From an uncultured Ruminococcus sp. (GTDB lineage Bacteria > Bacillota > Clostridia > Oscillospirales > Acutalibacteraceae), in assembly GCA_964646975.1 (NCBI GenBank), contig CAZYGJ010000013.1:2466-66465 (forward strand): a stretch of DNA of 64,000 nt. The letters are read 5' to 3'. The notes beneath the pieces are model-generated. The model made no database searches, had not been told where the DNA came from, and saw only the letters and a program-made list of their open reading frames with translations. A program made the position numbers and the translations under genes. Numbering within the stretch: the stretch's first letter is position 1; the number at the start of each line of letters is the position of its first letter. Shown in pieces: positions 1,439-42,330 of the stretch.

Positions 1439-2290
1439 TTATTTGAGCTTGTTTGAAAGCTCGGTCAATTCCTCGTCGGAATAAAATTCAATCTGTAAAA
1501 CGCCGCCCTTTTTGCCCTTGCTTTTGGTTATGCTAATCTTTCTGCCAAGGCTTTCGTTGAGGGCAAGCTCAACCATACTGTAAAACGACGGCTTTTTCTC
1601 AGGCTTTTCTTCAACAGGCTGTTTCGGCTTTGCCTTGCACAGCTTTTCTGTTTGGCGAACGGACAAATCCTTTTGAACAATCAGCTCTGCAAGCTCCAGC
1701 ATAGCTTTTTCGCTTTCAAGCGAAAGCAACGCTCTTGCGTGACCTGCCGAGATTTTGCCGTCCTTCAGATATTCGGCTACGCTGTCGGGCAGATTTAAAA
1801 GTCTGAGTGCGTTTGCAACGGCAGGACGTGATTTGCCCACAGATTGTGCAACCTCGTCTTGAGTAAAGCCGTGTTCGTTCATCAGCACGTTATAGCCCAA
1901 CGCTTCTTCAAGCGGAGTTAAATCCTCACGCTGGAGGTTTTCGATGAGAGCAAGCTCCATTGTTTCGGTGTCGCCCAGCTCCTTGATGATTACGGGGACT
2001 TCCTTAAGCCCTGCCATTCTGCAAGCTCTGTATCGTCTTTCGCCTGCCACGATTTGGTAGCCGCCGAGTGTGAGCGGACGCACCAAAAGCGGCTGCAAAA
2101 GTCCGTGCTTTGAAATGCTTTCGGCAAGCTCCGAAAGTGCCTTTTCGTCAAATTCTTTTCTCGGCTGACCTCGGTTTGGCTCAATTTCGGCAATGTCAAG
2201 TGTGACCGTGCCGTTGCTTTCTTCGTTTTCGTTTTCGATAAAAATAGCACCCAAGCCTTTGCCCAGACCGCCTAATTTTTTCGCCATCAA
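1439..2290 (-). CDS. parB: ParB/Spo0J chromosome partitioning protein
   Basis: GLGKGLGA N-terminus, QPRK, GLLQPLLVR, AGERRYRA, ENLQREDL motifs; directly downstream of parA. Confidence 0.95.
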   Translation of the reverse strand: MMAKKLGGLGKGLGAIFIENENEESNGTVTLDIAEIEPNRGQPRKEFDEKALSELAESISKHGLLQPLLVRPLTLGGYQIVAGERRYRACRMAGLKEVPVIIKELGDTETMELALIENLQREDLTPLEEALGYNVLMNEHGFTQDEVAQSVGKSRPAVANALRLLNLPDSVAEYLKDGKISAGHARALLSLESEKAMLELAELIVQKDLSVRQTEKLCKAKPKQPVEEKPEKKPSFYSMVELALNESLGRKISITKSKGKKGGVLQIEFYSDEELTELSNKLK

Positions 2291-3054
2291 TGTCGCTCCT
2301 TTGCAATGATTTCGCCCGCAAGCCGTGAATATGCCTCGCTGCCCTTGCAGGATTTGTCGTAATAGATAACCGGCATTCCAAAGCTCGGTGCTTCGGAAAG
2401 TCTGACGCCTCGTGTAATCACCGTGCCGAACACCTTGCCCGGAAAGAACTTTTTGACCTCCTCAACCACCTGCTGAGTAAGGTTGAGCCTGCCGTCGTAC
2501 ATCGTCAGCAACACGCCCTCCAGCTCGATTGAGCGGTTGTATCTGCGTTTGATTATTCTGACAGTACTCATAAGCTGGCTGAGTCCCTCAAGTGCGTAAT
2601 ATTCGCATTGAATCGGCACAATAAACGTGTCGGCAAGCGTGAGTGCGTTGGTTGTGATAAGCCCAAGCGACGGCGGACAGTCGATGATTATGTAGTCGTA
2701 ATACTGCTTTATCGGCAGGATTGCATCCTTTAAAAGAGCCTCTCTGTGAGGTCTTTCGGCTATCTCAAGCTCTGCCGCAGCAAGCTCTATGCCCGACGGC
2801 AAAACGTGCAGATTTTGATAAGGTGTGGTCAGCACGCATTGCTCGGCTTTTATCCCCTCAACAATGATGTTGTAGGTTGAATTTTGGATTTTGCTTTTGT
2901 CAATCGCAACTCCGCTTGTGGCATTGCCCTGCGGGTCGGCGTCGATAAGCAGAGTTTTTTTGCCTGCCGCACCAAGACAAGCGGCAAGATTTACAGCGGT
3001 AGTGGTTTTGCCTACTCCGCCCTTTTGGTTTGAAATAGCTATTACCTTTGCCAA
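2287..3054 (-). CDS. parA: ParA/Soj ATPase
   Basis: Deviant Walker A NQKGGVGKTTT, DADPQGNAT, IDCPPSLG, SEAPSFG. Confidence 0.96.
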   Translation of the reverse strand: MAKVIAISNQKGGVGKTTTAVNLAACLGAAGKKTLLIDADPQGNATSGVAIDKSKIQNSTYNIIVEGIKAEQCVLTTPYQNLHVLPSGIELAAAELEIAERPHREALLKDAILPIKQYYDYIIIDCPPSLGLITTNALTLADTFIVPIQCEYYALEGLSQLMSTVRIIKRRYNRSIELEGVLLTMYDGRLNLTQQVVEEVKKFFPGKVFGTVITRGVRLSEAPSFGMPVIYYDKSCKGSEAYSRLAGEIIAKERH

Positions 3055-3172
3055 AAAATCACCCTTCTACGTGTTTTCAACCCTATTTTTTAATAATTTC
3101 GTTACTTTTAAAAGTATAACACATTTGCAGAGGTTTTTAAAGGGTATAACGCAATTTTTATTATTTGTAATA

Positions 3173-3188
3173 TGTTTCACGTGAAACA
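3173..3188. promoter_or_regulatory. parS centromere site
   Basis: Perfect 16 bp palindrome TGTTTCACGTGAAACA matching the Firmicute parS consensus, just upstream of parA. Confidence 0.92.
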
Positions 3189-3263
3189 TTTTGCGTGAAA
3201 CTGTGTGGCGGTCAGTTTTGTTAGGTTCATAGATGTGGAAGGGTTGCAGATAAATTATGAAGC

Positions 3264-3880
3264 TGCTGCGACGGCAATCCCTCAGTCAGCTTCGCTGACA
3301 GCTCCCTTTGCACAAGAGAGCCTTGAAAGGTAGCACATTTTAATAACAATGATAGCTGTGAAAAAGTTTTCAGTTATTCTATTGTAGGAAATGTTATATT
3401 TAAATAATACGCTACTGCGACAGACAATCCCTCAGTCATTTTGCAGGCAAAATGACAGCTCCCTTTGCACAAGGGAGCCGTGAAAAGTTGCATATTTCGG
3501 ATAAATTGATAGATATGGAAAAGTTTTCTGATAGCTGAAAGTATAGTTTTTTTGCTCAACATTTCCGCAAAATCAAAGCCTCCCTTGTGTAAAGGGAGGT
3601 GGCAAAAATCGAAGATTTTTGACGGAGGGATTGAAAGCGTTTATGTTAGATGAACGTTAAAATTTAAAACCAAAGCTTCCACACGCACCAAGCCCTCACT
3701 TGAGGGAGGTGGCACGACGAAAGTCGTGACGGAAGGGTGAGCAAAGGAAATGGAGTTAATCAGTTACCCAAAATCATCATTGAGGGAATAAAGCTTCATA
3801 ATCACGGAAGCAATGCAGTGTGCGGACGGGTGTAATTTTTTAAAAATATATCAAACTCAACTGCGGTGAAATGCACTAAA
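3264..3880. repeat. Mosaic REP-like array 1
   Basis: Double-hairpin repeats at 3275-3322 and 3425-3479 (+), 3578-3633 and 3692-3741 (-), ~80 bp module near 3812-3877, linkers shared with the other arrays. Confidence 0.9.
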
Positions 3881-3995
3881 AGCAAAGAACCGTACAGGGG
3901 TCTGTACGGTTCTTCGCAAGGGGTTAGATAAGGAAATGGGTATGAGTGGAACGGATGCTTTCGCATCCAAGTGGAAAGTTAGTTAAACCGCCGAT

Positions 3996-4829
3996 TCAGG
4001 CGGATTTGTCGCTGTTTGACACACGCTTTTTCGGAATCCTGATTGTGTATTCAATAAAATTTTCGTTGTCTGTTTTGTTTGATTGAGCGTTAATTCCCGA
4101 AAGCCTCATCGTGTCAATAGCTTTGTTGATTGTGTTTAAAAAAATTCTTACGTCTTTTATCACCGCTTTACTGCTGCCCTGTTTTTTGTCGATTTTGGGG
4201 CTTTGTGTTGTTGTTGCACAGATTAGGCTCTCGGCTTGCCCAACGTTGAGGTTGTCGGAGATTATCCTTGACAATACTTCTCGCCGCAAATGCTCGTCCT
4301 CGATTTTCAGCAACGCTCGTGCGTGCCGTTCGGTGAGGTTGGAGCTTTCGATAAGCTCCTGTTCCTCGTATGTAAGCCTCAAAAGTCGCAGTTTGTTGGC
4401 TATGGTGGATTGCGATTTTCCGAGCTTGCGTGCTGTTTGCTCCTGAGTCAGACCATAACGGCGAATCAGCTTTGAAATTCCTCTTGCTTCCTCAAAAAAT
4501 CCGAGGTCGCAACGCTGGAGATTTTCAAGCAGAGCATAAACCGCCGATTCCTTGTCTGTGCATTTGATTATGATACAGGGAACTTTTTTCAGCCCTGCCG
4601 CAACCGCCGCCCTGAGCCGACGCTCGCCTGCAATCAGCTCGAACTCGGTTGCAGTTGCTTTTCGCACGGTTAGCGGCTGCAAAATTCCGTTTTCGGCTAT
4701 TGACTGTGAGAGCCTTGCAAGCTGTTCGGCATCAAATTGCTTGCGTGGTTGGGCTTTGTTCGGTCGAATTTTAATTATCGGTATTTCAGAGATTATGTTT
4801 TCGTTTTTAACTAAAAAATTCAACCGCAT
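3996..4829 (-). CDS. noc: ParB-family protein, Noc-like
   Basis: QPRKQF, GILQPLTVR, AGERRLRA, ENLQRCDL; canonical position between rsmG and parA. Confidence 0.75.
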   Translation of the reverse strand: MRLNFLVKNENIISEIPIIKIRPNKAQPRKQFDAEQLARLSQSIAENGILQPLTVRKATATEFELIAGERRLRAAVAAGLKKVPCIIIKCTDKESAVYALLENLQRCDLGFFEEARGISKLIRRYGLTQEQTARKLGKSQSTIANKLRLLRLTYEEQELIESSNLTERHARALLKIEDEHLRREVLSRIISDNLNVGQAESLICATTTQSPKIDKKQGSSKAVIKDVRIFLNTINKAIDTMRLSGINAQSNKTDNENFIEYTIRIPKKRVSNSDKSA

Positions 4830-11919: not shown

Positions 11920-11993
11920 ACTGAAAACCTCCCTTCAAAATATAACCTTGCAATATAGCATTATACCTTAGTTTTGCGTTTTCGTCAACACTT

Positions 11994-13372
11994 TTTTGCA
12001 TTTTTGTACATTTCACCGCAGGAATGTTTGATGTGCTTTCAAAGGCGTAAACACGTCCGAACACTGCATCTAATTCAAACATTTTTGTGCATTTCACCGC
12101 AGGAAGCTTTGATGTGCTTTCAAAGCTATGAACTCGTCCTAATACTGCATTTAAGTTATAATTTAGATGTCACTTTTCAAGGCTCTCTTGTGCAAAGGGA
12201 GTTTTTGTGCATTTCATCGCAGTAATGTTTGATGTGATTTCAAAGGCGTAAACACGTCCAAACACTGCATTTAATTCAAGCCTTTTGCCTACAAAATGAC
12301 TGAGGGATTGCCTGTCGCAGTAGCGTATTATTTAAATTTAACATTTTCTACAATAGAATAACTGAAAACTTTTTCACAGCTATCATTGTTATTGAAATAT
12401 GAACACTTCCAAGGCTCCCGCTTGAGGGGAGCTGTCAGCGAAGCTGACTGATGGGTGGACACTGCATTACTTCCGTGATTATGAAGCTTTATTCCCTCAA
12501 TAATGTTTTTGAAAAAATTTTAACTCCATTCTCTCAGCTCACCCTTCCGTCACGACTTTCGTCGTGCCACCCTCCCTCAAGTGAGGGCTTGGTGCGTATG
12601 GAATTTTTTGCTTGAAAATCTGACGCTAATCTAACAGAAATGTTTACAATCCCTCCGACAAAAATTTTTGTCTATTCAGCGTAGGCAGGTTATATTTAAA
12701 TCCAACATAACATTCTCGTCCTAATACCACATTTAGTTCAAGCATTTTTGCCACCTCCCTTTACACAAGGGAGGCTTTGATTTTGCGGAAATGTTGAGCA
12801 AAAAAACTATACTTTCAGCTATCAGAAAACTTTTCCATATCTATCAATTTATCCGAAATATGCAACTTTTCACGGCTCCCTTGTGCAAAGGGAGCTGTCA
12901 TTTTGTCTACAAAATGACTGAGGGATTGCCTGTCGCAGTAGCGTATTATTTAAATTTAACATTTCCTTAGCTCACCCTTCCGTCACGACTTCGTCGTGCC
13001 ACCCTCCCTCAAGTGAGGGCTTGGTGCGTATGGAATTTTTTGCTTGAAAATCTGACGCTAATCTAACAGAAACGCTTTCAATCCCTCCGACAAAAATTTT
13101 TGTCTATTCAGCGTAGGCAGGTTATATTTAAATCCAACATAACATTCTCGTCCTAATACTGCATTTAATTCAAGCATTTTTGCCACCTCCCTTTACACAA
13201 GGGAGTTTTTGTGCATTTCATCGCAGTTGTGTTTGATAATAATTCAAAGTTTACACCCGTCCGCACACTGCATTTTGGTTATAATTTAAATGTCACTTTC
13301 CAAGGCTATCTTTATTATTGAAATGTGCTACCTTCCAAGGCTCTCTTGTGCAAAGGGAGTTTTGCCCATTTC
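11994..13372. repeat. Mosaic REP-like array 2 (largest)
   Basis: Tandem 81 bp modules at 12000 and 12081; about 8 whole or partial double-hairpin repeats in both orientations; internal ~235 bp near-duplication (12537-12770 vs 12970-13203). Confidence 0.92.
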
Positions 13373-13428
13373 AGTGAATTAAAACAATGCTTTCAAAATT
13401 TTTCATTGCAAAAAGATAAAATTAAGTA

Positions 13429-13457
13429 TTGCTAACCGTGCAAAGGTTTGATATAAT
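13429..13457 (+). promoter_or_regulatory. Sigma-A promoter of guaB
   Basis: TTGCTA-17 bp-TATAAT with extended -10 TG. Confidence 0.7.
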
Positions 13458-13459
13458 AA

Positions 13460-14992
<1,533 letters not shown>

Positions 14993-16035: not shown

Positions 16036-17090
16036 TTTTGCCTATTCAACGCAGGTGGATTGTCAGCGTTTCTGTTAGATTAGCGTCAGATTTTCAAGCA
16101 AAAAATTCCATACGCACCAAGCCCTCACTTGAGGGAGGGTGGCACGACGAAGTCGTGACGGAAGGGTGAGTTGAGAGAATGGAGTTAAAATTTTTTCAAA
16201 AACATTATTGAGGGAATAAAGCTTCATAATCACGGAAGTAATGCAGTGTCCACCCATCAGTCAGCTTCGCTGACAGCTCCCCTCAAGCGGGAGCCTTGGA
16301 AGTGTTCATATTTCAATAACAATGATAGCTGTGAAAAAGTTTTCAGTTATTCTATTGTAGAAAATGTTAAATTTAAATAATACGCTACTGCGACAGGCAA
16401 TCCCTCAGTCATTTTGTAGACAAAATGACAGCTCCCTTTGCACAAGGGAGCCGTGAAAAGTTGCATATTTCGGATAAATTGATAGCTGTGGAAAAGTTTT
16501 CTGATAAATTAAACCTTAGATTTTAGTTGAACATTTCCGTAAAATCAAAGCCTCCCTTGTGTAAAGGGAGGTGGCAAAATGCTTGAATTAAATGCAGTGT
16601 TAGAACGTGAATGTTATGTTGGATTTAAATATAACCTGCCTACGCTGAATAGACAAAAATTTTTGTCGGAGGGATTGAAAGCGTTTCTGTTAGATTAGCG
16701 TCAGATTTTCAAGCAAAAAATTCCATACGCACCAAGCCCTCACTTGAGGGAGGGTGGCACGACGAAGTCGTGACGGAAGGGTGAGCTAAGGAAATGTTAA
16801 ATTTAAATAATACGCTACTGCGACAGGCAATCCCTCAGTCATTTTGTAGACAAAATGACAGCTCCCTTTGCACAAGGGAGCCTTGGAAAGTGACATCTAA
16901 ATTATAACCAAAATGCAGTGTTCGGACGTGTTTACGCCTTTGAAATCACATTAAACCTACCTACGCTGAAATACACAAAAACGTTTGAATTAAATGCAGT
17001 GTGCGGACGTGTTCACAGTTTTGAAAACACATTAAACTTAACTGCGGTGAAATGCACAAAAATGCTTGAATTTCGCCGCAGTAATGTTTA
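16036..17090. repeat. Mosaic REP-like array 3
   Basis: Same modules as array 2 in opposite overall orientation; 16070-16425 is nearly the reverse complement of 12283-12639. Confidence 0.92.
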
Positions 17091-17675: not shown

Positions 17676-17763
17676 TGGTGCCGGTGACCGGACTTGAACC
17701 GGTACGGAGTATTAGTCCGAGGGATTTTAAGTCCCTTGTGTCTGCCTATTCCACCACACCGGC
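17676..17763 (-). tRNA. tRNA-Leu(TAA)
   Basis: Cloverleaf with long variable arm, anticodon loop CT-TAA-AA, encoded CCA. Confidence 0.95.
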
Positions 17764-17774
17764 ATAAAAAAGTT

Positions 17775-17849
17775 TGGTGACCCGGACGAGAATCGAACTC
17801 GTGTTACCGCCGTGAAAGGGCGGTGTCTTAACCGCTTGACCACCGGGCC
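17775..17849 (-). tRNA. tRNA-Glu(TTC)
   Basis: GGCCCGGTGGTCAAGCGGTTAAGACACCGCCCTTTCACGGCGG...CACCA. Confidence 0.96.
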
Positions 17850-17854
17850 GGATT

Positions 17855-17931
17855 TGGTAGCGGAAATAGGACTTGAACCTACGACACTTCGGGTATGAAC
17901 CGAATGCTCTAGCCAGCTGAGCTATTCCGCC
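17855..17931 (-). tRNA. tRNA-Met(CAT), elongator type
   Basis: GGCGGAATAGCTCAGCTGGCTAGAGC..TTCATAC..GCTACCA; paired first base, not initiator-like. Confidence 0.9.
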
Positions 17932-18767: not shown

Positions 18768-21308
18768 TTATTCGTTCACTTCGGAATTATCGGAATTTTC
18801 AGCATCGTCGGCAACCTCTGCCGTCTTCTCACCGCTTTCCTCGGTCGGCTCTGTGCTTTCCTCCTCGGCTTCGTGCGGAGCACGAGCCACAGTCACAACC
18901 TTGTCGCCGTCGCCTGTTTTCATCAGCGTAACGCCCTTTGCGGGACGTGAACAAATTCTGATGGTTTCGGCGGCAATTCTGATGATAATTCCGTCCTGAG
19001 AAATGATTATAACGTCGTCGTCAAGGTCTACCACCTTGATTGCGGCAACATCGCCGTATTTTTCAACGTGATAGTTGGTAAGACCCTTGCCGCCTCTGCT
19101 TTGAACACGATAGTCGTCGGGACTTGAAAGTCTGCCGTAGCCTGTTTCGGACACGGTGAGAACATAACCGCCCTCACGCACAACGCTCATTCCCACAACG
19201 CAGTCGCCCTCCTTGAGCTTCAACGCCTTAACACCACGAGCCTGTCTGCCCATAGGACGAACGTCGGTTTCATTAAAGCGAATTGCAACGCCCTTTTTGG
19301 TTGCGACAATAACCTGACTGTTGCCGTCGGTCATTCTTACCCACGCAAGCTCGTCGCCGTCGTTTAATTCAAGTGCAATCAAGCCGCCCTTGCGTGCCGT
19401 GTTGTATGCACTGAGTGCAATCCTCTTGATAATGCCATGACGGGTTACCATAATCAGGTATTTTTCCTCGTCAAACTCAGGCACTCTTATCATTGAAGTC
19501 ACCTTTTCGTCGGTAGAAAGAGGCAAAAGATTAGCAATGTTAATGCCCTTTGACTGTCTGCTTCCTTCGGGAACTTCATAGCATTTAAGCCTGTAAACCC
19601 TGCCCTTGTCGGTAAAGAACAGAACATAGTCGTGCGAATTGATGATAAACATTTCGGAGGCAACGTCCTCCTCACGCCTTGACATACCCGAAACACCACG
19701 TCCGCCTCGGCGTTGCAGCTTGTAGGTGTCAACCGCAAGTCGCTTAACATAACCGAACTGAGTGAGCGTAAGCACACATTCCTCCTGCGGAATAAGGTCT
19801 TCAATGTCAACCTCACCGCTGACTGAGCAAATCTCGGTTCTTCTGGGGTCTGCATACTTGTTGCGAAGAGCGATAAGCTCCTCTTTAACGATTTCAAGCT
19901 TTCGTGTTTCGCTTGCAAGAATTTCAAGATATTCCTTAATCTTTGCCTGCAAAGTGGCAATTTCCTCGTCAATCTTGGCACGCTCCATATTTGTGAGCTG
20001 TCCCAATCGCATCTGAACAATCGCCTGAGCCTGAATCTCGTCAAGACCGAAGCGTTCCATAAGTGCGGCTCTTGCACTCGGCAAATCGGGGCTTTTGCGA
20101 ATCAATGCGATAACCTCGTCGATAAAGTCAATCGCAATCTTCAAGCCCTCCAAAATATGCTCTCTGTCCTGAGCCTTTTTAAGGTCAAACTCGGTGCGGC
20201 GGCGGATAACCTCCTCCTGAAACTCAATGTAGCACTTGAGCATTTCCTTGAGTGTAAGGATTTTCGGCTCGCCGTCAACAATGGCAAGCATAATCGCACC
20301 AAAGGTAGTTTGAAGCTGAGTATAAGAAAACAACTGGTTAAGCACGATTTGAGGCGAAGCGTCACGCTTTACGTCAATTTCAATGTGCATACCGATTCTG
20401 TCGGAGTGGTCTTCAATATTTGAAATGCCCTCAATCTTTTTGTCTTTAACAAGGTTTGCAATGGTTTCAATCAGCCTTGCCTTGTTCACCTTGTAGGGCA
20501 GCTCGGTTACAATAATCTTAAATCTGCCGTTTTTAGCCTCAACGATTTCGGTTTTGGCACGAACGGTAATCTTACCCCTACCTGTTGCATAAGCGGCTCT
20601 TATTCCGCTTCTGCCCATAATTATGCCGCCTGTCGGAAAGTCCGGACCCGGCAACGCCTCCATAAGCTCGGCAACCTCGGCGTCGGGGTTGTCAATCAGC
20701 GTGCAAACAGCGTCAATGGTTTCGCCCAGATTGTGGGGCGGAATTTCGGTTGCCATACCAACGGCAATACCGCTTGAACCGTTTACAAGCAGGTTTGGAA
20801 AACGGCTCGGCAAAACAACAGGCTCTTTAAGTCTGTCATCGTAGTTGGGGATAAAGTCAACTGTGTTTTTGTCGATGTCGGTGAGCATATCCATAGATAT
20901 TTTGCTCATTCTTGCTTCTGTGTAACGATAAGCAGCAGGCGGGTCACCGTCAACCGAACCAAAGTTTCCGTGACCGTCAACCAGCATATATCTCATCGAA
21001 AAGTCCTGAGCAAGTCGAACCATTGCGTCATAAACCGAGGTGTCACCGTGAGGGTGATACGAGCCCAGCACAGAACCAACGGTGTCGGCACATTTGTGGT
21101 AAGGCTTTGACGGCTCAAGACCTCTTTCAAACATTGTGTAGAGAATACGACGGTGAACAGGCTTCAAGCCGTCACGCACGTCGGGCAAGGCTCTTGAAAC
21201 GATAACACTCATCGAGTAATCAAGAAAGCTCTTACGCATCTCGCTTTGCAGGTCAACGTCAATTATTCTTTTTTCTGTCTGCTGTTCATTCATCTGTTCA
21301 TTATCCAT
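18768..21308 (-). CDS. gyrA: DNA gyrase subunit A
   Basis: [22 protein letters not shown] active-site region, GyrA-box QRRGGRG. Confidence 0.98.
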
Positions 21309-21335
21309 TTTTTACCTCTTTTATATAATCAGCGT

Positions 21336-21925
21336 AATTTTGTGTATTTCAACGTAGTTAAATTTGATGTGTTTACAAAATAGTGAACGCGTCCTAACAC
21401 TGCATTTTGGTTATAATTTAGATGTCACTTTCCAAGGCTATCATTGTTATTGAAATGTGCTACCTTTCAAGGCTCCCGCTTGAGGGGAGCTGTCAGCGAA
21501 GCTGACTGAGGGGTGGACACTGCATTACTTCCGTGATTATGAAGCTTTATTCCCTCAATAATGTTTTTGAAAAAATTTTAACTCCATTCTCTCAACTCAC
21601 CCTTCCGTCACGACTTCGTCGTGCCACCCTCCCTCAAGTGAGGGCTTGGTGCGTGTGGAAGCTTTGGTTTTAAATTTTAACGTTCATATAACATAAACGC
21701 TTTCAATCCCTCCGACAAAAATTTTTGTCTATTCAGCGTAGGCAGGTTATATTTAAATTCAACATAACATTCACGTTCTAACACTGCATTTAATTCAAGC
21801 ATTTTTGCCACCTCCCTTTACACAAGGGAGGCTTGGATTTTGCGGAAATGTTGAGCGAAAAATAATACTTTCAGCTATCAGAAAACTTTTCCACAGCTAT
21901 CAACTAAACCAAAATATGCAACTTC
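21336..21925. repeat. Mosaic REP-like array 4
   Basis: ~80 bp module, hairpin repeats near 21474, 21595 and 21713-21833, shared linkers; fills the thioesterase-gyrA spacer. Confidence 0.9.
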
Positions 21926-21930
21926 TACAC

Positions 21931-22365
21931 TTACGCAAAAAACTTCAAATTGGCGTTGATTTTATCAAACAGGTCGGGCATACGTTTTTTGATGTTGCAG
22001 GGCTTAAAGGTTTTTGCGTCAATAAACCCGTGCTGAGTTGAGCCGTAGCCCAGCTCGGTTTCACTGCCGTCGTCGTTAATACGCTTTACGGAATACGAAA
22101 ACTCTATTCTTGCGGCACTGATAAACGTGCACCATGTGCGAATAATCAGATTATCGTCATATTTTGACGGCAGCTTGTAATGACAGTTAAGGTTCAGCAC
22201 GGGCGTCATAACCCCTGCCTCCTCCATATCTCTGTATGACGTGCCGAACTTTCTGATGTAATCTGCTCTGCCCATTTCATACCAAATAGGATAATTTGAA
22301 TGATGAGTAATTCCCATTTTGTCGGTTTCAACATATCTGACCTGTACTTTTGTTCTTGCGTGCAT
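21931..22365 (-). CDS. Acyl-CoA thioesterase (YbgC/4HBT family)
   Basis: VRYVETDKMGITHHSNY motif. Confidence 0.9.
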   Translation of the reverse strand: MHARTKVQVRYVETDKMGITHHSNYPIWYEMGRADYIRKFGTSYRDMEEAGVMTPVLNLNCHYKLPSKYDDNLIIRTWCTFISAARIEFSYSVKRINDDGSETELGYGSTQHGFIDAKTFKPCNIKKRMPDLFDKINANLKFFA

Positions 22366-22419
22366 AACGAACTTCCTTTTTAAATGCGGTTAATTAACCT
22401 TGTTGATAATCGAATAAAT

Positions 22420-24453
<2,034 letters not shown>

Positions 24454-24477
24454 TTACCTCTTTTATATAATCAGCGT

Positions 24478-25621
24478 AATTTTGTGTATTTCAACGTAGT
24501 TAAATTTGATATGTTTACAAAGTAGAGAATGCGTCCTAACACTGCATTTTGGTTATAATTAAAATGTCACTTTCCAAGGCTCCCTTGTGCAAAGGGAGTT
24601 TTTGTGCATTTCATCGCAGTAATGTTTGATGTGATTTCAAAGGCGTAAACACGTCCAAACACTGCATTTAATTCAAGCCTTTTGCCTGCAAAATGACTGA
24701 GGGATTGCTTTACCTCAATGTCTATATACTCACACACTCCACGAAAATTACTGTTTACTTCGTTATTAGGAATGCGAATTATTTTTAAGCTATACTCTTT
24801 AAGAAATTCAGAACGTTGTGCGTCCTTCTGAACATTACTGTCCTCGTAATGTTGTGAACCGTCCAATTCAATTACAAGCTTTGCTTCTGCACAATAAAAA
24901 TCTGCAATATATTTTCCGAGAATTTTTTGCCTTGAAAAACGTACGGGATATGAACGCAGAAAATCATACCAAAGATGCCTTTCTTCTTTTGTCATTTTTT
25001 TCCGCAGTTGCCTTGCAAACGGAACTAATTGCTTATTATGTTTTGGTTGCACAGCTACAATCCCTCCGTCAAAAATCTTCGATTTTTGCCACCTCCCTTT
25101 ACACAAGGGAGGCTTGAATTTTGCGGAAATGTTGAGCGAAAAATTATACTTTCAGCTATCAGAAAACTTTTCCACAGCTATCAATTTAATCTAAAGATAA
25201 AGCATTTCCAAGGCTCCCGCTTGAGGGGAGTTTTTGTGCATTTCATCGCAGTAATGTTTGATGTGATTTCAAAGGCGTAAACACGTCCAAACACTGCATT
25301 TAATTCAAGCCTTTTGCCTGCAAAATGACTGAGGGATTGCCTGTCGCAGTAACGTATTATTTAAATATGACATTTTCTACAATAGAATAACTGAAAACTT
25401 TTTCACAGCTATCATTGTTATTGAAATATGAACACTTCCAAGGCTCCCGCTTGAGGGGAGCTGTCAGCGAAGCTGACTGATGGGTGGACACTGCATTACT
25501 TCCGTGATTATGAAGCTTTATTCCCTCAATAATGTTTTTGAAAAAATTTTAACTCCATTCTCTCAACTCACCCTTCCGTCACGACTTCGTCGTGCCACCC
25601 TCCCTCAAGTGAGGGCTTGGT
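24478..25621. repeat. Mosaic REP-like array 5, containing the DUF559 gene
   Basis: Perfect 115 bp direct repeat 24594-24708 / 25226-25340; hairpin repeats on both sides of the nuclease ORF. Confidence 0.92.
24567..25052 (-). CDS. DUF559 (Vsr-like, PD-(D/E)XK) endonuclease embedded in a repeat array
   Basis: ARQLRKKMTKEERHLW..F.RQ..YIADFYC..KLVIELDGSQH..D..R..L..IIRIPN signature; probable GTG start at 25052; ~115 aa core plus a 46 aa repeat-encoded tail. Confidence 0.88.
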   Translation of the reverse strand: MQPKHNKQLVPFARQLRKKMTKEERHLWYDFLRSYPVRFSRQKILGKYIADFYCAEAKLVIELDGSQHYEDSNVQKDAQRSEFLKEYSLKIIRIPNNEVNSNFRGVCEYIDIEVKQSLSHFAGKRLELNAVFGRVYAFEITSNITAMKCTKTPFAQGSLGK

Positions 25622-25623
25622 TG

Positions 25624-25923
25624 CTATTTCTCACCCTTAAACTCGCAAAAATAAGGGAGAAGCAGGGAACCTATAAAAACTGTGGTTATATTTGTGAGCA
25701 TCAACGCCAAAAACGAAATATCCTCTATCACATACAGCTCAAAAGCGTCAACAATTGCAGTAATTAATGCAATTATTAAAAATAAAATCAAAAATTTTTT
25801 TCGTGACACCCTAAATTTCTTGCCGCAATGATAACATTCAACATTCTTTTTATACAAAAGGCTGTTCACATCTTTGTATCTGAAAATTGTTTTGCAATGT
25901 GGGCAAATCGGCAACTTGAGCAT
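25624..25923 (-). CDS. Hypothetical membrane protein with zinc-ribbon motifs
   Basis: CPHC and CYHC motifs, two hydrophobic segments. Confidence 0.6.
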   Translation of the reverse strand: MLKLPICPHCKTIFRYKDVNSLLYKKNVECYHCGKKFRVSRKKFLILFLIIALITAIVDAFELYVIEDISFLALMLTNITTVFIGSLLLPYFCEFKGEK

Positions 25924-25925
25924 AA

Positions 25926-26639
25926 TTAAAACCTTCTGTTTGACGAATATCTGTTGCCGTCCTGTCGTTCGGGCTTTTTGTCGGAAGTATCGTCAGAAGT
26001 TATGTAGTGACGTGTGCGACTTGCCGTAACGGGCTTTTCGGAATGTATTTTTTTCAGCGGAGCATTGTTATACGAATGTTTCTCGCTTACGTTGTCAATA
26101 ACGTGAACATACGGCTTTTCTTCCTCAGGCTCGATTACTTCGGAATTTTGTGTCAGTGCGTCCTTGCTCATCTGCTCTCTTGCGGCGTTGCGTTCTGCTC
26201 TGATAGTGTTAAACACATCGGCGTTAATTTGGAACTGTCCGCTGTCCTGCGAAACGGTAGACGGCTCTCGGCTTAACTCCGACACCATAAGATTGTCCGA
26301 ATATTCAATGCCTGCTTTCTTTGCCTCCATTGATTTTTTGTATTTTTTCAAAGGAACAAAATTAACAAACTTAGGCGATATGAACGTAAAAATGATAAAC
26401 GGAAGTGCAACAAGCAAAATTCCGAGCGGATTGTGTGAAAGTCCGCAGAAAAACCAAACTGCCATAATTATCAATGCCAAAGCCGCAAAGCCCGCAAAGG
26501 TGAGAACAATCATCTTGTTAATTACAACTCTCATTTGCTTGCCGCAGCGAGGGCAAACATATTCGGCTTTTCTTCTGCTTGAAAAAGCGGCTGCATATGA
26601 AATTCTTTTGCCGCAGTACGGACATCTTTTTTTCTTCAT
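25926..26639 (-). CDS. Hypothetical membrane protein with N-terminal zinc ribbon
   Basis: CPYC and CPRC motifs, two TM segments, polar C-terminus. Confidence 0.65.
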   Translation of the reverse strand: MKKKRCPYCGKRISYAAAFSSRRKAEYVCPRCGKQMRVVINKMIVLTFAGFAALALIIMAVWFFCGLSHNPLGILLVALPFIIFTFISPKFVNFVPLKKYKKSMEAKKAGIEYSDNLMVSELSREPSTVSQDSGQFQINADVFNTIRAERNAAREQMSKDALTQNSEVIEPEEEKPYVHVIDNVSEKHSYNNAPLKKIHSEKPVTASRTRHYITSDDTSDKKPERQDGNRYSSNRRF

Positions 26640-26667
26640 AAAGCTCCCTCTTTATATCGTTTTGCCG

Positions 26668-26925
26668 TCAAAACCTGACGGTGCGGATTCTCTCTTTTAA
26701 CGTTTTTGCCGAAAGCTGTGTGATATACACAACCTCCTTGCCGTCCCGAACGCAAATAACAAAGGACTTGGGCAGCTCATACGAAACATTCACCACCTGT
26801 CCCGATTTTTCGGCGGCAGTCAAAAAGTCCCTTGTTTTTTTCGACACGGTGCAGGCATCAATGTCAAACATAGCCACAATGCTCTCGGCTTCAATCACAG
26901 TTTCCTGTCCCAGATGTAGATACAT
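26668..26925 (-). CDS. remB: DUF370 / extracellular matrix regulator RemB (YaaB)
   Basis: MYLHLGQETVI..PKSFVI..SAKTL; canonical position after recF; ATG at 26925. Confidence 0.85.
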   Translation of the reverse strand: MYLHLGQETVIEAESIVAMFDIDACTVSKKTRDFLTAAEKSGQVVNVSYELPKSFVICVRDGKEVVYITQLSAKTLKERIRTVRF

Positions 26926-28021
26926 CAATAATTTCCCCGTTTTCAACTTGAAAAATTTTGCCCTTTTTAAGCTGTTCCTTGTTGGATTTTTCACAGCAGG
27001 TAATAAATACCTGACAATCCTTAATCTCGTTGAGCAGAAAATCCTGACGTTCGCTGTCAATCTCAGACAGCACGTCATCAAGCAAAATCACAGGCTCCTC
27101 GCCCATTTTTTCTTTCAAAACAGCCGCTTCGGCAAGCTTCAGCGACAGCACGGCACTCCGCTGTTGCCCCTGAGAAGCAAAGGCCTTTGCATTTTTGCCG
27201 TTAATCAAAATTTCAATGTCGTCACGATGCGGTCCTGCATTGGTCACACCCGTGCGAATATCATCACGCCTGTTGTCCTCAAACTTTTTTCTCAGCTTTT
27301 GCTCAATTTGCGTCAAGCTGTCGTCAAGCTCAATTTCAGACGATGAAACATAGCGAATTTTTAAATCTTCCTTGTCCTTTGAAATGCCCCGATGATAAAT
27401 TTTTGCCTTTTCGGTCAGCATTTTTACATATTCAAGCCTCTGTTCAATGAGCATTGAGCCGTATTTTATCAGCGGCTCATCCCACACGCACAGGGTTTCT
27501 TCAAGCGACGGACGCTTGTAAATATCCTTTAAAAGAGAATTTCGCTGAACCAAAATGCGGTTAAACTTTGACAAAATTACCGCATTTCTCAGCCTTTCTC
27601 TGCAAATTGCACTGTCAATAAATCTTCGCCTTTCGGACGGCCCTCTTTTTATCAGGTTGAGGTGTTCGGGCGAAAACACAACGGCATTGAATTTTTCAAT
27701 CAACGCCGAGGCAGAGGGCTTTTCAACACCGTTGATAACCACCTGCTTTTTGTTTTGCAAAAACACAATTTCGGCACTTTGCTCACGGTCTTGACCGAAA
27801 AACCTCATCTCAATCTTCGTTTTTTGACAGCCAAACTTTATAACCTCGTTGTCCTTGGCACTTCTAAACGAATGACCTCCGCAAAACAGCCACAAAGCCT
27901 CAATAAGGTTGGTTTTGCCCTGAGCATTTTTGCCGTAGATTATGTTTACTCCGTCGCAGGGAGTGATTATATCGCTTTTAAGATTTCTGAAATTTTCTAC
28001 TTTAAGTGCAATTACTCTCAC
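26891..28021 (-). CDS. recF: DNA replication/repair protein RecF
   Basis: NFRN, GKNAQGKTN Walker A, GPHRDD, SQGQQRS, LLDDVLSE. Confidence 0.97.
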   Translation of the reverse strand: MRVIALKVENFRNLKSDIITPCDGVNIIYGKNAQGKTNLIEALWLFCGGHSFRSAKDNEVIKFGCQKTKIEMRFFGQDREQSAEIVFLQNKKQVVINGVEKPSASALIEKFNAVVFSPEHLNLIKRGPSERRRFIDSAICRERLRNAVILSKFNRILVQRNSLLKDIYKRPSLEETLCVWDEPLIKYGSMLIEQRLEYVKMLTEKAKIYHRGISKDKEDLKIRYVSSSEIELDDSLTQIEQKLRKKFEDNRRDDIRTGVTNAGPHRDDIEILINGKNAKAFASQGQQRSAVLSLKLAEAAVLKEKMGEEPVILLDDVLSEIDSERQDFLLNEIKDCQVFITCCEKSNKEQLKKGKIFQVENGEIIDVSTSGTGNCD

Positions 28022-28037
28022 TTTAAAAAATCAATCC

Positions 28038-28259
28038 CTACTGCTCGACGGTAATTTTTACATCTTCAAATTCAACAACGTCTCCACCACGCAGCTTTTT
28101 GCCACGCATAGTGCAAACCTCGCCGTTTACCTTTACCTCACCGTTTTGAATCACAAGCTTTGCCTCGCCGCCTGTCAGCGTAACTCCGCACAGCTTGAGC
28201 AAATCCTGCAATTTTATGTATTCGGTGTCAATTTTTATATTCTCAGCTCTCATTTGCAA
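28038..28259 (-). CDS. yaaA: S4-domain RNA-binding protein
   Basis: [24 protein letters not shown]; between dnaN and recF. Confidence 0.9.
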
Positions 28260-29349
28260 GCCTCATAGGAACAACAATGTTCAAAAAGCTGTCGCCCTTG
28301 ACAGGTTTAATGATAATCGGTGACTTTGAGCCGTTGAGTATCATTCTTATCTCGTCGGTGTCGGTGTTTTTGAGAGCGTCAATCATATATCTGTTGTTAA
28401 AGCCAATCTCAACGTCCTCTCCGATAATTTGCACGGAGATTTTGTCATTACCACTTCCGTTTGCTGAAGCACACGAAAACTTTATCTCATCATTTGCAAA
28501 TCTGCACCTTACGGGGCTTTGGATTCGCTCGTTATTCAAAAGAGCCATTCTTTCAACAGAGCTGATAAGGCTTCTTGTCGAGATTATAAGCTCGGTTTTT
28601 GTTTCGTTCGGAATAGCCGTGTTATAATCAATAAAGGTTCCCTCAATAAGTCGGGAAATAACACGGTAGTTTTTGATTTGAAACGCAATGTGACGCTTGC
28701 CGATGATAACATCAACATTTTCGTCGTCATCATTCAAAAGCTTCAGAACCTCAAGCTGAGTTTTGCCGGGTACAACAAAGGCTGTGTTTGATTGCGAATC
28801 AACGTTTTCACTGCGGATAGCCATTCTGTAACCGTCAATCGCAACGATTTTGAAAACGCCGTCCTCAATCTCATAAAGCGAGCCTGTGTAAATCGGCTTT
28901 GACATATTGTCGCTCACTGCATAAACCGTCTGCCTTATCATATCACGCAAAACCTTTGATTGCAGGGTGATAACATCTGTTTGCTCAAACGACGGCAAAT
29001 CGGGATATTCAACCGACGACATACCGATAACGCTGAAATCGGAGCTTCCCGATTTTACGTTTACAACCATCTTGTCGTTGATGTCAATGGTAACAATTTC
29101 TTCGGGCATATTACGCACGATGTCAAGAATGAGCTTTGCATTGATAACAAATTCGCCCTTTTCCTGAACTGTGGCTTCAATTTCCGTGGTTATGCCGATT
29201 TCAAGGTCATAGCCCGAAATATTCAGCCTGTCGTCCTCGCCTTTTATCAGCACACCCTCCAATGCGGGAATGGAGGCTTTTGAAGAAACAGCTCTCGAAA
29301 CATTTGAAATAGCACTTGATATATCTGTTCTGAAACACGAAAACTTCAC
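28243..29349 (-). CDS. dnaN: DNA polymerase III beta clamp
   Basis: 368 aa; [26 protein letters not shown]. Confidence 0.96.
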
Positions 29350-29586
29350 GCAGTGAAACCTCTCTTCTTTATATCATAATAATTATAGTAGTAGTAATAG
29401 GCAATGTTAAAATGTAGCAAAACCTCGAAAAACGGCTTGAACATTTCAAAAATCCGTCCACAAAACTTAAAGTCAAAATGTTTGAGTTTGTGAAATAAAA
29501 TTCAACAAAAATCAACATTCAACATTGAGTTAAAAGATGTGGAGATAATGTTAATGAAAATGTTAAAATTTTCAAGAGAATAAAAG
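29350..29586. other. Probable oriC unwinding region (dnaA-dnaN spacer)
   Basis: DnaA-trio run (minus strand CCTATTACTACTACTAT, ~29385-29401) beside an AT-rich tract; no canonical TTATCCACA boxes, but repeated WWTYAACA-like motifs. Confidence 0.7.
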
Positions 29587-30912: not shown

Positions 30913-31015
30913 TTTTATCCCTTCCTTCAGTTTATTCGGCTGTCAAAGCAAAAAATTCAACAGCTTGATAAATCCCTTAATTCTATAAATTAAGCCTAAA
31001 ATACCATTCTTTTAT

Positions 31016-42187: not shown

Positions 42188-42330
42188 TTTCAAACTCCTT
42201 TGCAACATATGTGTTGCAATTAATTAATTATGCAACAAAACTGTTGACTTGTTGATGTTGTTACCTTATAATATTAGTGTAACAGTTGAATAATTCATTG
42301 TCAACAATTTTATGAAAGGAAGAATAAACT

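Follow-up and report, generated by a model that had tools for sequence, protein, structure and literature searches.

Four repeats in a gut Ruminococcus genome are terminal modules of a DUF559-bearing unit with putative triplex-hairpin ends

Introduction

BoxC, PIT and TM triplex repeats have been known since the 1990s, and Hoyne and Maher are said to have worked on such intrastrand-triplex repeats in 2000. To our knowledge, these repeats have no known function, origin or mobilising enzyme. DUF559, whose E. coli member is YcjD, is among the commonest uncharacterised nuclease families. A second type of short structured repeat, the REP/REPIN-RAYT system, was reportedly studied by Nunvar in 2010, by Bertels and Rainey in 2011 and by Ton-Hoang in 2012. 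BoxC/TM repeats, which have the same topology as the element described here, form triplexes in vitro, as seen by CD and NMR (PMC4666352). The 2015 survey by Holder et al. found no transposase or integrase near these repeats and made no link to DUF559 (PMC4666352). MITEs, a third relevant class, occur in phages as well as in hosts (PMC11602168), as does the element here.

The four repeats considered in this work lie at 3275-3741 of a window, meaning the whole 64,000-nt stretch of DNA analysed, from an uncultured Ruminococcus. They share with the BoxC/PIT/TM(ECO) repeats a dispersed, intergenic, multi-copy distribution, an arrangement of pyrimidine, purine and mirrored purine blocks, and loci that are rearranged between strains. 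Those repeats reside in Enterobacteria, Cyanobacteria, Neisseria and others, whereas the present ones are found in Firmicutes and their phages. A literal search for the repeat sequence in a library of papers gave no match.

Results

Architecture of the four copies

Each copy consists of a head, a variable hairpin 1, a short junction and a conserved hairpin 2 (Table 1), confirming the single structural grammar proposed in an earlier note on this DNA. Folded as single-stranded DNA, either strand of each copy gives exactly these two hairpins, with z from -1.8 to -6.2 (-5.5 for V2, -6.2 for V3). Against a covariance model built mostly from unrelated phage copies, V1 to V4 score 64, 70.7, 65.8 and 17.4 bits, with E from 4e-18 to 1e-3 (3.6e-18 for V1 in model R1, 1e-3 for V4).

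The same note had spoken of four repeat variants. They represent two end types of one DUF559 unit: V1 and V2 are of the right-end type (A), V3 and V4 of the left-end type (C), and all four are gene-less terminal modules of that unit. V3 and the left end of the DUF559 unit in the window have the same sequence and the same score, 65.8 bits. V2 has the same right-end type and the same hairpin-1 stem as that unit, whose right end is intact in another strain. V4 has 11 further copies of its type in the window, ten scoring 20.8 bits and one 18.2 bits. Two details of the earlier description are revised: the hairpin-2 variant GCTCCC-ctcaagc-GGGAGC, placed within 3275-3741, is absent there and belongs to other copies (for example 12413-12458 and 16250-16295), and hairpin 2 of V4, given as CCCTC-cctcaagt-GAGGG, is better read with the shorter loop listed in Table 1.

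The tail that follows V1 is homologous to the tail after V2 (3480-3533), with 79% identity, and the two form the direct-repeat family D1. A separate 81-nt module, M81, which is partially present at the cluster edge, behaves like IS200/IS605-type (PATE) elements.

Table 1 Positions and parts of the repeat copies, repeat clusters and DUF559 unit in the window
Feature	Positions	Strand	Parts or evidence
V1, A-type (right-end type) copy	3275-3322	+	CAATCCCTCAG-TCAGCttcGCTGA-CA-GCTCCCTTtgcacAAGAGAGC; head CAATCCCTCA; hairpin 1 GTCAGC-ttc-GCTGAC; hairpin 2 GCTCCCTT-tgcac-AAGAGAGC, 1 mismatch
Tail and spacer after V1, species-specific, local mosaic	3323-3424	+	self-BLAST repeat map
V2, A-type copy	3425-3479	+	..GTCATTTTGcaggCAAAATGAC-A-GCTCCCTTtgcacAAGGGAGC; hairpin 1 GTCATTTTG-cagg-CAAAATGAC; hairpin 2 GCTCCCTT-tgcac-AAGGGAGC
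V3, C-type (left-end type) copy	3578-3633	-	CAATCCCTCCGTCAAAAATCttcGATTTTTGCCA-CCTCCCTTtacacAAGGGAGG; head CAATCCCTCC; hairpin 1 GTCAAAAATC-ttc-GATTTTTGCC, T·C mismatch at base; hairpin 2 CCTCCCTT-tacac-AAGGGAGG
V4, diverged C-type copy	3692-3739	-	CACCCTTCCGTCACGACtttcGTCGTGCCACCT-CCCTCaagtGAGGG; head CACCCTTCC; hairpin 1 CACGAC-tttc-GTCGTG; short hairpin 2 CCCTC-aagt-GAGGG
Partial copy of M81, cluster edge	3812-3881	+	
Largest mosaic cluster of end modules and M81, between rnpA and the IMPDH gene	11992-13373		
Mosaic cluster with head-to-head gene-less pairs	16057-17072		V4(-) 16736-16783 with V2(+) 16828-16882; V4(-) 16121-16168 with V1-like(+) 16250-16295
Right end (A-type) of the DUF559 unit	24580-24707	-	head and 5' arm of hairpin 1 24680-24707; M81 insertion 24599-24679; hairpin 2 24580-24598; compared with the uninterrupted copy in L209
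DUF559 (PF04480, Vsr-like PD-(D/E)xK fold) endonuclease gene, GTG start	24708-25052	-	Pfam E 1.5e-28; PDB 3HRL
Left end (C-type) of the DUF559 unit, inverted relative to the gene	25058-25113	+	65.8 bits

Pairing in hairpin 1 is kept while its sequence varies

Hairpin 1 occurs in 165 distinct sequences, which together contain 1031 Watson-Crick pairs and 58 others (95% paired); G·T pairs are not enriched among these 1089 stem positions (10 G·T, 7 A·C). All 65 distinct copies of one set, 59 of them from phage contigs, carry a self-complementary hairpin 1. In this set 91.7% of cells are paired, compared with 40-51% in slid controls, and cells with a double change number 147, compared with 53 in shuffles. 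An independent set of 87 distinct genome copies gives 91.9% paired cells and 235 double-change cells against 81. The covariation, which the earlier note had proposed to check with a covariance model and a significance test, is significant, as none of 500 shuffles reaches the observed value in either set.

The accompanying claim, that sequences differ with pairing kept and that structure rather than sequence is under selection, holds for hairpin 1 only, where pairing stays constant under free sequence change. The head and hairpin 2 are strongly conserved in sequence and belong to the most conserved 30 nt across genera; they are near-identical in genera whose DUF559 proteins differ by 20-30%, while the sequence of hairpin 1 varies with the nucleotide composition of its genome. 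The types of hairpin 1 are inherited and recur in different genera, and for this reason the idea that hairpin 1 copies a target site was dropped.

The head covaries with hairpin 2 in mirror register

Changes in the pyrimidine head go together with changes in the paired bases of hairpin 2, taken in mirror register, a pattern that was not seen in the earlier reading and that, as far as comparison of copies can indicate it, is the signature of an intrastrand triple helix. Among distinct copies, all 46 with head base A have a G-C closing pair and all 19 with head base C a C-G pair. The head variants CCCCTC, TCCCCC, CCCTCTC, TTCCTC and CTCCCTC are each accompanied by the corresponding mirror-image change of hairpin 2. 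The mirror diagonal has the highest mutual information, with a sum of 1.99 bits against a shuffled maximum of 0.53 (none of 5000 shuffles as high); every other register stays at or below 0.53 bits. The mirror match is only partial in V4 and some other copies. A purine motif explains 303 of 368 triples and a pyrimidine motif 283 of 368. As far as we know, mirror-register covariation of this kind is unusual natural comparative evidence for selection on a DNA triple helix.

Read on the reverse strand, the element runs CCTCCCTT, loop, AAGGGAGG, hairpin 1, GGAGGGATT, the three-block order of a class II triplex. Judged from this order, the opposite strand shares its Py-Pu-Pu topology with the BoxC/PIT/TM repeats of E. 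coli, hairpin 1 standing where they have their second loop, and a custom triplex-repeat finder recovers the window copies together with E. coli BoxC. The second loop is a hairpin of 14-30 nt, free in sequence, plus the junction; in BoxC/PIT/TM repeats, and in the ITxF search, it measures 1-6 nt, so the published ITxF search would miss the element. The third strand here also has a conserved CAAT/ATTG extension that distinguishes it from BoxC/PIT/TM.

In single-stranded or extruded DNA, each end of about 55 nt would form hairpin 1 with its free sequence and hairpin 2 with one arm wholly of pyrimidines and the other wholly of purines; the head would supply the third strand, seated in the hairpin-2 groove. 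The triples would be G·G-C, A·A-T and T·A-T on the purine-rich strand, giving a class II intrastrand triplex. We infer from the covariation that the element actually adopts this form.

The same data bear on the notion that the repeats are passive palindromes, decaying remnants whose arms come from templated quasi-palindrome correction and whose mirror match stems from low-complexity C/T sequence. Very few mismatches and a lack of wobble pairs are what templated correction would leave, and the head and hairpin-2 arm are indeed of low complexity, reaching 79% identity in a shifted direct register as well. Mutual information, however, is not inflated by low complexity, and it peaks on the mirror diagonal only, with six varying positions. 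The near-identity of head and hairpin 2 across genera and the precise placement of the start and stop codons of a conserved gene within the ends further make passive decay very improbable. Perfect arms may nevertheless derive in part from templated palindrome correction at replication and not from selection alone.

The repeats are abundant, dispersed and variable between strains

The head motif is observed 25 times in the window against 1.6 expected, and the hairpin-2 motif 21 times against 0.07, which excludes chance. A strict head-plus-hairpin finder missed most copies; the covariance model, used for copy finding, gives about 40 whole or partial copies in the 64 kb. Their loci are dispersed, multi-copy, intergenic and strain-variable, and strains that are 99% identical differ within the repeat clusters. 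In L209, the locus of another strain, a junction of DUF559 with IMPDH may reflect a rearrangement. Hundreds of further copies exist in gut phage contigs and Oscillospirales genomes. The pattern scan finds the ends in at least 120 phage contigs, and a cultured-phage collection yields only four matches, all of them uncultured fecal records. In gut metagenome contigs, the depth of the repeats is about 17-57 times that of the flanking genes. Metagenome and metatranscriptome contigs give such copy-number ratios but do not bear on transcript ends.

About 12% of the window, which is origin-proximal, consists of these repeats. Metagenome assemblies break at them, leaving most gene-carrying contigs at 0.5-2 kb, and the repeats give rise to spurious ORFs and strain differences. 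Being common to gut Oscillospirales and phages, they are relevant to binning, host assignment and strain typing.

The cluster of four copies is located between noc (3996-4829) and soj (2287-3054), a position that would suit local double-stranded binding sites of the neighbouring genes, such as centromere-like sites for ParB/Noc or Soj. That proposal is hardly credible given that the same modules occur in at least ten other intergenic clusters of the window, beside unrelated genes, as well as in phages and many other genera. A parS-like site was dropped because the repeats are dispersed everywhere, and we know of no resemblance between them and the parS sequence.

Several further candidates were rejected. 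TTTCAATCC bears only a loose likeness to type I-C CRISPR repeats, and there is no array. The upstream GGGA expected of a tRNA-like T-arm is not conserved, a self-cleaving ribozyme would go with neither the missing Rfam match nor the missing wobble pairs, and sequestration of a ribosome-binding site by hairpin 2 could involve only 5 bp.

A DUF559 gene lies between two inverted ends

In the full-length unit, approximately 450 bp long, a gene for a 122-aa DUF559 protein with the catalytic motif D...ExD...H is enclosed by a left end in inverted orientation and a right end, with the heads pointing inward and hairpin 2 outward. The head complement of the left end, GGAGGG in the window, sits just 5' of the DUF559 start codon and is the ribosome-binding site of the gene. 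In this strain the ORF continues to 24567, since M81 took away the usual stop codon in hairpin 1; exact-protein look-ups of this ORF and of GyrB gave no record.

With the strict pattern, 74 genome loci show a left end in 51 cases, a right end in 62 and both in 48, and the covariance model finds more. A left C-type end is combined with a right A-type end in 41 of the 48 two-ended loci, and many Oscillospirales genera are represented. Butyricicoccus pullicaecorum is a cultured carrier. In at least 63 of 77 loci the gene ends at a TGA stop codon within hairpin 1, in its 3' arm. The DUF559 ORF is intact in the 77 loci examined and has codon-periodic conservation; just outside hairpin 2, conservation collapses. 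Flanking genes define 63 distinct upstream and 64 distinct downstream contexts in about 70 loci, and neighbours almost never match. Some draft genomes hold at least two DUF559 copies, and close homologues form at least 8000 clusters, mostly on short contigs.

Gene-less head-to-head pairs are common, with spacers of 1-60 nt in phages and about 55-90 nt in the window; these spacers contain no gene remnants. The DUF559 gene itself was found on only 2 phage contigs, compared with more than 120 that carry the ends. Two pattern scans of phage contigs yielded no empty sites; a comparison of loci with one another did. Between filled and empty phage sites 11-27 nt are replaced, with no target-site duplication and no fixed target.

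A homing-type parasite could account for part of this arrangement: the repeats would persist independently, serving as homology arms and expression signals, and a free-standing DUF559 homing endonuclease would cut gene-less head-to-head pairs and be copied in by repair. The position of the gene, between two heads, never varies, gene-less pairs abound, and the gene is found in many genomic contexts; moreover, Vsr-like nucleases include a proven homing enzyme, I-Bth0305I, and PADLOC matches the gene weakly to a homing-endonuclease model (E 0.006). Homing is nevertheless fairly unlikely, as it leaves the arrival of the ends at new sites and in phage genomes unexplained, and is at odds with the remnant-free spacers, the two phage contigs with a gene, and the location of the gene in other phyla.

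DUF559 genes adjoin triplex-type repeats in other phyla

Nine other taxa, which belong to four further bacterial phyla, have DUF559 genes next to repeats of the triplex type, in many cases on both sides. Py-Pu(-Pu) repeats are present within about 250 nt of the DUF559 genes of E. coli (ycjD), Azospirillum, Sphingomonas, Picosynechococcus, Synechocystis, Neisseria gonorrhoeae, Deinococcus, Sinorhizobium and Klebsiella. The rough chance of such proximity is ~2e-6, as estimated from 20-40 kb controls for a small sample of nine loci, five of them with a control region. In these phyla the gene is usually beside the repeats and not inside a split pair. The orientation of the triplex motif to the gene varies by lineage: in Deinococcus the pyrimidine arm adjoins the gene, and here the head does. 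The link of an enzyme to triplex-type repeats is new, whereas the repeat kind itself was already known.

DNA is favoured over RNA as the folded strand

The earlier note expected a substrate recognised as folded single-stranded DNA or RNA. A folded single strand is still the most economical reading, with DNA favoured over RNA on four grounds: the lack of enrichment in G·T pairs, the occurrence of both orientations next to each other, the absence of an Rfam match, and the fact that the better-fitting purine-motif triplex is not formed in RNA (PMC4666352). Rfam 15 gives no hit at gathering score in the window and only noise at E up to 10 in 3050-4000.

As an RNA cis-element, the repeat would act in transcripts, for instance by directing processing, stabilising 3' ends or insulating translation between cistrons, with hairpins and a pyrimidine-motif (U·A-U, C+·G-C) triplex that DUF559 binds or cleaves in the manner of the Vsr-like RAP/FASTK proteins. 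On phage contigs with one dominant coding strand, as defined by a coding-signature test, 146 of 164 copies are in the sense orientation, which counts against the DNA reading and would be equally in line with a role in RNA; where a contig has 4-10 copies, all are on one strand. Copies occupy the gap from a stop codon to the ribosome-binding site that follows, and in one case the insertion interrupts an ORF, with a TGA immediately before the element and an ATG immediately after it. The right end belongs to the 3'-terminal part of the DUF559 mRNA. Action of Vsr-like folds on RNA is also on record, as the title of a FASTKD4 paper states. The orientation bias can, in our view, come instead from selection against a purine-rich, triplex-prone non-template strand. 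An RNA role is made quite unlikely by the unenriched G·U pairs, the lack of an Rfam match even at E up to 10, the presence of both orientations in one intergenic region of bacterial genomes, and the antisense left end of the unit. In addition, 4-5 adjacent C+·G-C triples would be weak at neutral pH, and the covariation of head base A3 with T-A is compatible with the purine motif alone, a motif that is not formed by RNA (PMC4666352).

Discussion

The structured ends of a nuclease-associated repeat family, acting at the DNA level, are the best reading of these repeats. We consider it somewhat probable, at a little better than an even chance, that the four copies belong to a repeat family of gut Oscillospirales (Clostridia) and their phages and represent its terminal modules without the gene, and that in this family the full unit bears DUF559, the ends are triplex hairpins and spread is driven by the nuclease. 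The DUF559 nuclease would recognise the folded end and nick or cut at or near it. Break repair and recombination among the many copies would then copy, move and reshuffle the ends and the gene, and this reshuffling would produce intergenic mosaics and strain differences. Both the action of the nuclease on these ends and the route of spread are what we infer from the arrangement of gene and repeats. PD-(D/E)xK nucleases act by hydrolysis of DNA and have no known rejoining activity, so a complete transposition chemistry is missing from this scheme.

A wider generalisation is more tentative and, to our minds, falls short of an even chance: DUF559 proteins, including E. coli YcjD, may be dedicated nucleases of intrastrand-triplex repeats throughout bacteria, may recognise the folded triplex-hairpin end and may drive the spread of the repeats and the genome rearrangements linked to them. 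The Oscillospirales element would then be a compact autonomous form of about 450 bp whose ends also populate gut phages. The puzzles of BoxC/PIT/TM and DUF559 merge into one testable question, whether DUF559 binds or cuts triplex-folded DNA.

Among known systems, integron attC sites are similarly recognised as a folded single strand, with structure conserved and sequence varied. The conserved unpaired or mismatched base of attC has a counterpart in the T·C at the hairpin-1 base of C-type ends, but there is no integrase, R/L box consensus or cassette logic here. Small IS and MITEs share the inverted ends, an ORF running into the right end, a translation signal in the left end, and gene-less derivatives that outnumber full copies. 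They differ in that the filled/empty pairs examined here have no target-site duplication despite the inverted ends; unlike an IS, the unit, of only some 450 bp, has structured ends and lacks a transposase of the DDE, serine, tyrosine or HUH type. IS200/IS605-type (PATE) elements carry their end hairpins on the same strand and insert 3' of a fixed short target, whereas the ends here are inverted and no fixed target is seen.

REP/REPIN-RAYT systems share short structured repeats in tens to hundreds of copies, inverted doublets, BIME-like mosaics, a small nuclease gene between two inverted repeat copies, and folded single-stranded DNA as the likely substrate. Their gene encodes a Y1 (HUH) transposase, in contrast to DUF559 (PF04480). 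A REP is a single imperfect palindrome of 20-40 nt with 5' GTAG, whereas the present end has two hairpins, a putative triplex and the head CAATCCCTC. RAYTs are mostly single-copy and vertically inherited, unlike the DUF559 gene, with its many contexts and multiple copies per genome. In conclusion, the BoxC/PIT/TM repeats, which share a DUF559 gene beside a copy in E. coli and eight other taxa, differ from the present family in lacking its two end types, A and C, arranged as inverted ends around a gene. The family points to the missing partner enzyme of BoxC/intrastrand-triplex repeats, and by analogy DUF559 would stand to triplex repeats as RAYT stands to REP.

Structure and setting of the repeat copies

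The window lies in the origin-proximal chromosome of a gut Clostridia bacterium (~43% GC), with mnmE, mnmG, rsmG, noc, soj, spo0J and serS on its minus strand and rnpA, dnaA, dnaN, recF, gyrB and gyrA farther along. Four repeat copies, V1-V4, form a cluster within the 940-bp noc-soj spacer, and one structural grammar, as an earlier note had observed, governs them all. Each consists of a head, CAATCCCTC(A/C), a first hairpin, G(T/A)C-stem-loop-stem-G(A/C)C, a single A and a second hairpin, (G/C)CTCCCTT-TRCAC-AAGGGAG(C/G), and folding yields both hairpins in each copy as DNA, on either strand. The hairpin-2 variant GCTCCC-ctcaagc-GGGAGC, placed by that note inside 3275-3741, belongs to copies outside this span. 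The head motif occurs 25 times in the window (1.6 expected) and the hairpin-2 motif 21 times (0.07 expected); by self-comparison, the repeat mosaic amounts to 8.2 kb, ~12% of the window, mostly in ten large intergenic clusters.

At 18768-31000, the dnaA-dnaN-recF-gyrB-gyrA block is co-directional with, rather than divergent from, the rnpA-mnmE-mnmG-noc-soj block, and the borders of both blocks carry repeat clusters. The cumulative GC skew of the window reaches its minimum near 40-42 kb. The region 40000-46700, low in GC (~37%), is probably an integrated element. A 756-aa ORF contains a tandem repeat of 78 nt (26 codons), which suggests a repeat-domain surface protein.

Window coordinates of the features discussed
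Feature	Position	Strand	Remark
soj	2287-3054	-	
Repeat copy	3275-3322	+	
Repeat copy	3425-3479	+	
Repeat copy	3578-3633	-	
Repeat copy	3692-3739	-	
noc	3996-4829	-	
M81 copies	12001-12283, 16911-17072, 24599-24679, 31997-32150, 47339-47500, 63341-63585		with others, ~25 copies
Gene-less head-to-head pair	16736-16783 and 16828-16882	- and +	
tRNA genes	17679-17931		three in a row
A-type end of DUF559 unit	24580-24707		head faces gene
DUF559 (PF04480) gene	24708-25052	-	exactly between two end copies
C-type end of DUF559 unit	25058-25113		head faces gene
tRNA gene	40000-40072		adjoins integrase and an HTH repressor-like gene
Phage-type integrase	40243-41445		
Skipping-rope RNA	45352-45430		62.7 bits
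756-aa ORF	51497-53767		
78-nt tandem repeat	53340-53530		within the 756-aa ORF
tRNA gene	55116-55189		
SAM riboswitch	55881-55967	-	50.5 bits

Covariation within hairpin 1

A pattern scan of phage contigs recovers at least 120 loci, and the matches listed include 65 distinct copies (59 from phage contigs), in each of which hairpin 1 differs yet is self-complementary; GC-rich contigs have a GC-rich hairpin 1, the window an AT-rich one. In this set 91.7% of cells are paired, against only 40-51% when partners are slid, with 147 double-sided changes versus 53 in shuffles. The covariance model built from the set matches ~40 copies, whole or partial, in the window, 209 copies in 82 genome loci and 229 copies in 100 phage loci. 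The genome copies, an independent set, are 91.9% paired with 235 double-sided changes versus 81, and covariation is significant in both sets (0/500 shuffles as high in each). Across 165 distinct sequences of hairpin 1, 1031 pairs are Watson-Crick; the exceptions are 10 G·T, 7 A·C and 41 other mismatches, and this lack of wobble pairs disfavours a purely RNA structure. After one phage copy, the 3' half of hairpin 2 (TTTGCACAAGGGAGCC) stands in up to four tandem repeats (phage loci L021 2959-3040, L050 and L087).

Mirror covariation between the head and hairpin 2

Head base 10 is A with a G-C closing pair of hairpin 2 (46/46) and C with a C-G closing pair (19/19). A looser search yields 46 classes of head and pyrimidine arm, among them AACCCCTC with CTCCCCT, AATCCCCC with CCCCCTT, CCCTCTC with CTCTCCC, AATTCCTC with CTCCTTT and CTCCCTC with CTCCCTC. 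The sole peak of head-arm mutual information is the mirror diagonal (h10-p41 0.55, h6-p45 0.33, h4-p47 0.33 and h3-p48 0.57 bits), which sums to 1.99 bits against a shuffled mean of 0.18 and maximum of 0.53 (0/5000 as high), all other registers staying at or below 0.53 bits. The earlier reading, that structure rather than sequence is selected in a substrate recognised as folded, is partly supported, in that hairpin 1 keeps its pairing, and is considerably extended; it missed this mirror covariation.

For an intramolecular triple helix, a third block must mirror one of the two strands in a purine-pyrimidine hairpin. On the strand described in the earlier note, the triplex would be of the pyrimidine motif (T·A-T and C+·G-C). 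The opposite strand runs in the order pyrimidine arm, loop, purine arm, hairpin 1, purine head, and its sequence predicts triples of the purine motif (G·G-C, A·A-T and T·A-T). The purine motif explains 303/368 positions versus 283/368 for the pyrimidine motif, and the covariation of head A3 with T-A fits the purine motif alone. We infer that the element forms a triplex.

The DUF559 endonuclease unit

Inverted end copies also enclose a DUF559 endonuclease gene. A genome scan with the window protein returns more than 520 matches, of which 80 loci at 69-83% identity were kept, and in most of these the architecture is repeated to the nucleotide. On the left, a reverse-complemented C-type end finishes in GACGGAGGGATTG, followed by TC and the ATG; on the right, the ORF enters the A-type end (..K-QSLSQLR-stop), its TGA falling within the 3' arm of hairpin 1. 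V3 and V4 are of the left-end type, V1 and V2 of the right-end type. By strict pattern, both ends are present in 48/74 loci (C-left with A-right in 41/48), and the stop codon lies within hairpin 1 in at least 63/77. The coding part shows third-position periodicity, and conservation drops from ~0.85 to 0.42 immediately beyond hairpin 2 and CTTTGG. Neighbouring genes are nearly all different (63 upstream and 64 downstream contexts in ~70 loci), and some draft genomes hold two copies.

The closest relatives among the matches listed come from Oscillospiraceae, Faecousia, Limivicinus, Butyricicoccus and Acutalibacteraceae genomes. Close homologues, typically 122-125 aa and named "endonuclease domain-containing protein", fill at least 8000 clusters, mostly on contigs of 0.5-2 kb; the only solved relative, 3HRL, is uncharacterised. 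Gene-less head-to-head pairs recur, and the gene is found in only two phage contigs; the phage copies are therefore non-autonomous.

The best-supported reading places the element at the DNA level, as an end that its structure defines, in a repeat family associated with a nuclease. Rival readings take the gene for a homing-type parasite of independent repeats, or the copies for passive palindromes or local protein-binding sites. Under the repeat-family reading, we infer both the action of the nuclease on the ends and the route by which new copies form; to finish any move, a PD-(D/E)xK enzyme, being hydrolytic, would depend on host repair or recombination.

Insertion, orientation and the 81-nt module

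In related phages, the same intergenic spot carries different variants of the element or none; insertion replaces 11-27 nt, and comparison of these phages reveals no target duplication left at the sites. In one case (phage loci L034 8988-9033 and L103 848-893), the element splits an ORF that is continuous in the related phages L023, L016 and L117, with a TGA immediately 5' and an ATG immediately 3' of it. The noc-soj cluster itself differs in another strain of the species, and in gut metagenomes the depth of the repeat span is ~17-57x that of flanking genes. On L209, a metagenome contig from another strain of the species, the DUF559 gene is joined on its upstream side to IMPDH-ROK genes that lie ~10 kb from it in the window (13373-13511 versus 25052-25627), reflecting either rearrangement between repeat clusters or chimeric assembly via repeats.

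Where one coding strand dominates a phage contig, the pyrimidine-rich strand is the sense strand in 146/164 copies. This bias could reflect an RNA role, and an RNA element is a further rival reading, against which the scarcity of G·T pairs stands; the bias could equally arise because a purine-rich non-template strand, prone to triplex formation, is selected against, or through a DNA process specific to one strand.

M81, a separate module of 81 nt (GCTTGAATTAAATGCAGTGTGCGGACG...ACTGCGATGAAATGCACAAAAA), either forms tandem arrays or is inserted within hairpin 1 of the main element. It is always preceded by GGCAAAA(AT) or by the terminal CACAAAAA of another copy, and it terminates in CACAAAAA itself. 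Strain comparison gives one clean presence/absence case, in which TGACAG is replaced. Another contig of the species carries an uninterrupted DUF559 right end at the site that M81 occupies in the window. This behaviour resembles that of IS200/IS605-derived miniature elements. A conserved stretch (..CTGACAAGCACTGCATTTG..) that includes the M81 motif AATGCAGTG, reversed, follows the right end at ten loci of different genera (L177, L182, L184, L186, L189, L192, L197 and L199-L201); the M81 family therefore reaches beyond the species of the window.

DUF559 genes and triplex-type repeats in other phyla

In E. coli, the DUF559 gene is ycjD, which terminates, stop codon included, within a degenerate pyrimidine/purine hairpin, with an intact BoxC (CCCCTCGCCCCTCTGGGGAGAGGGTTAGGGTGAGGGG) 170 nt downstream; the median number of places that BoxC occupies per E. 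coli genome is 16. In E. coli K-12 (L210, 11040-11830), the GTG start falls in a 16-bp hairpin, within its 3' arm, and the stop is followed by a duplicated piece of the ycjD 3' end and then BoxC. Triplex-type motifs occur within ~250 nt of DUF559 genes, often on both sides, in all eight further taxa sampled (Azospirillum, Sphingomonas, Picosynechococcus, Synechocystis, N. gonorrhoeae, Deinococcus, Sinorhizobium and Klebsiella).

A simple motif finder, run on 20-40 kb around five DUF559 genes, gives 1 match in E. coli, beside the gene; 5 in Deinococcus, 2 of them flanking it, inverted; 12 in Sphingomonas, 7 within 250 nt; 6 in Azospirillum, 2 within 250 nt; and 31 in N. gonorrhoeae. There, triplex-type repeats (TCCTCTCTCCCTgtGGGAGAGAGctAGAGAGAGGG) form two long arrays (L219, 10799-13037 and 19884-21173) with a unit spacing of ~280 nt, the gene standing at the edge, the start, of the second. 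A rough, cluster-based estimate puts the chance of proximity in all five taxa at ~2e-6. The literature search returned no paper tying DUF559 or ycjD to triplex repeats. The enzyme association is new and open to test; the element itself is a variation on a kind of repeat already known.

Comparison with known repeats

BoxC, PIT and TM are one class II intrastrand triplex motif, composed of a 5' pyrimidine block, a purine block and a 3' reverse-Hoogsteen block (Holder et al. 2015, PMC4666352). The BoxC triplex is stable in vitro by CD and NMR, and BoxC is associated with rearranged loci, with no transposase or integrase ever found near it; RNA is unable to form purine-motif triplexes (PMC4666352). 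The window element shares the BoxC/PIT/TM topology but differs in that its second loop is a hairpin; the motif search of that study, limited to loops of 1-6 nt, would therefore miss it. The element is like REP-RAYT in its logic and like BoxC in its fold.
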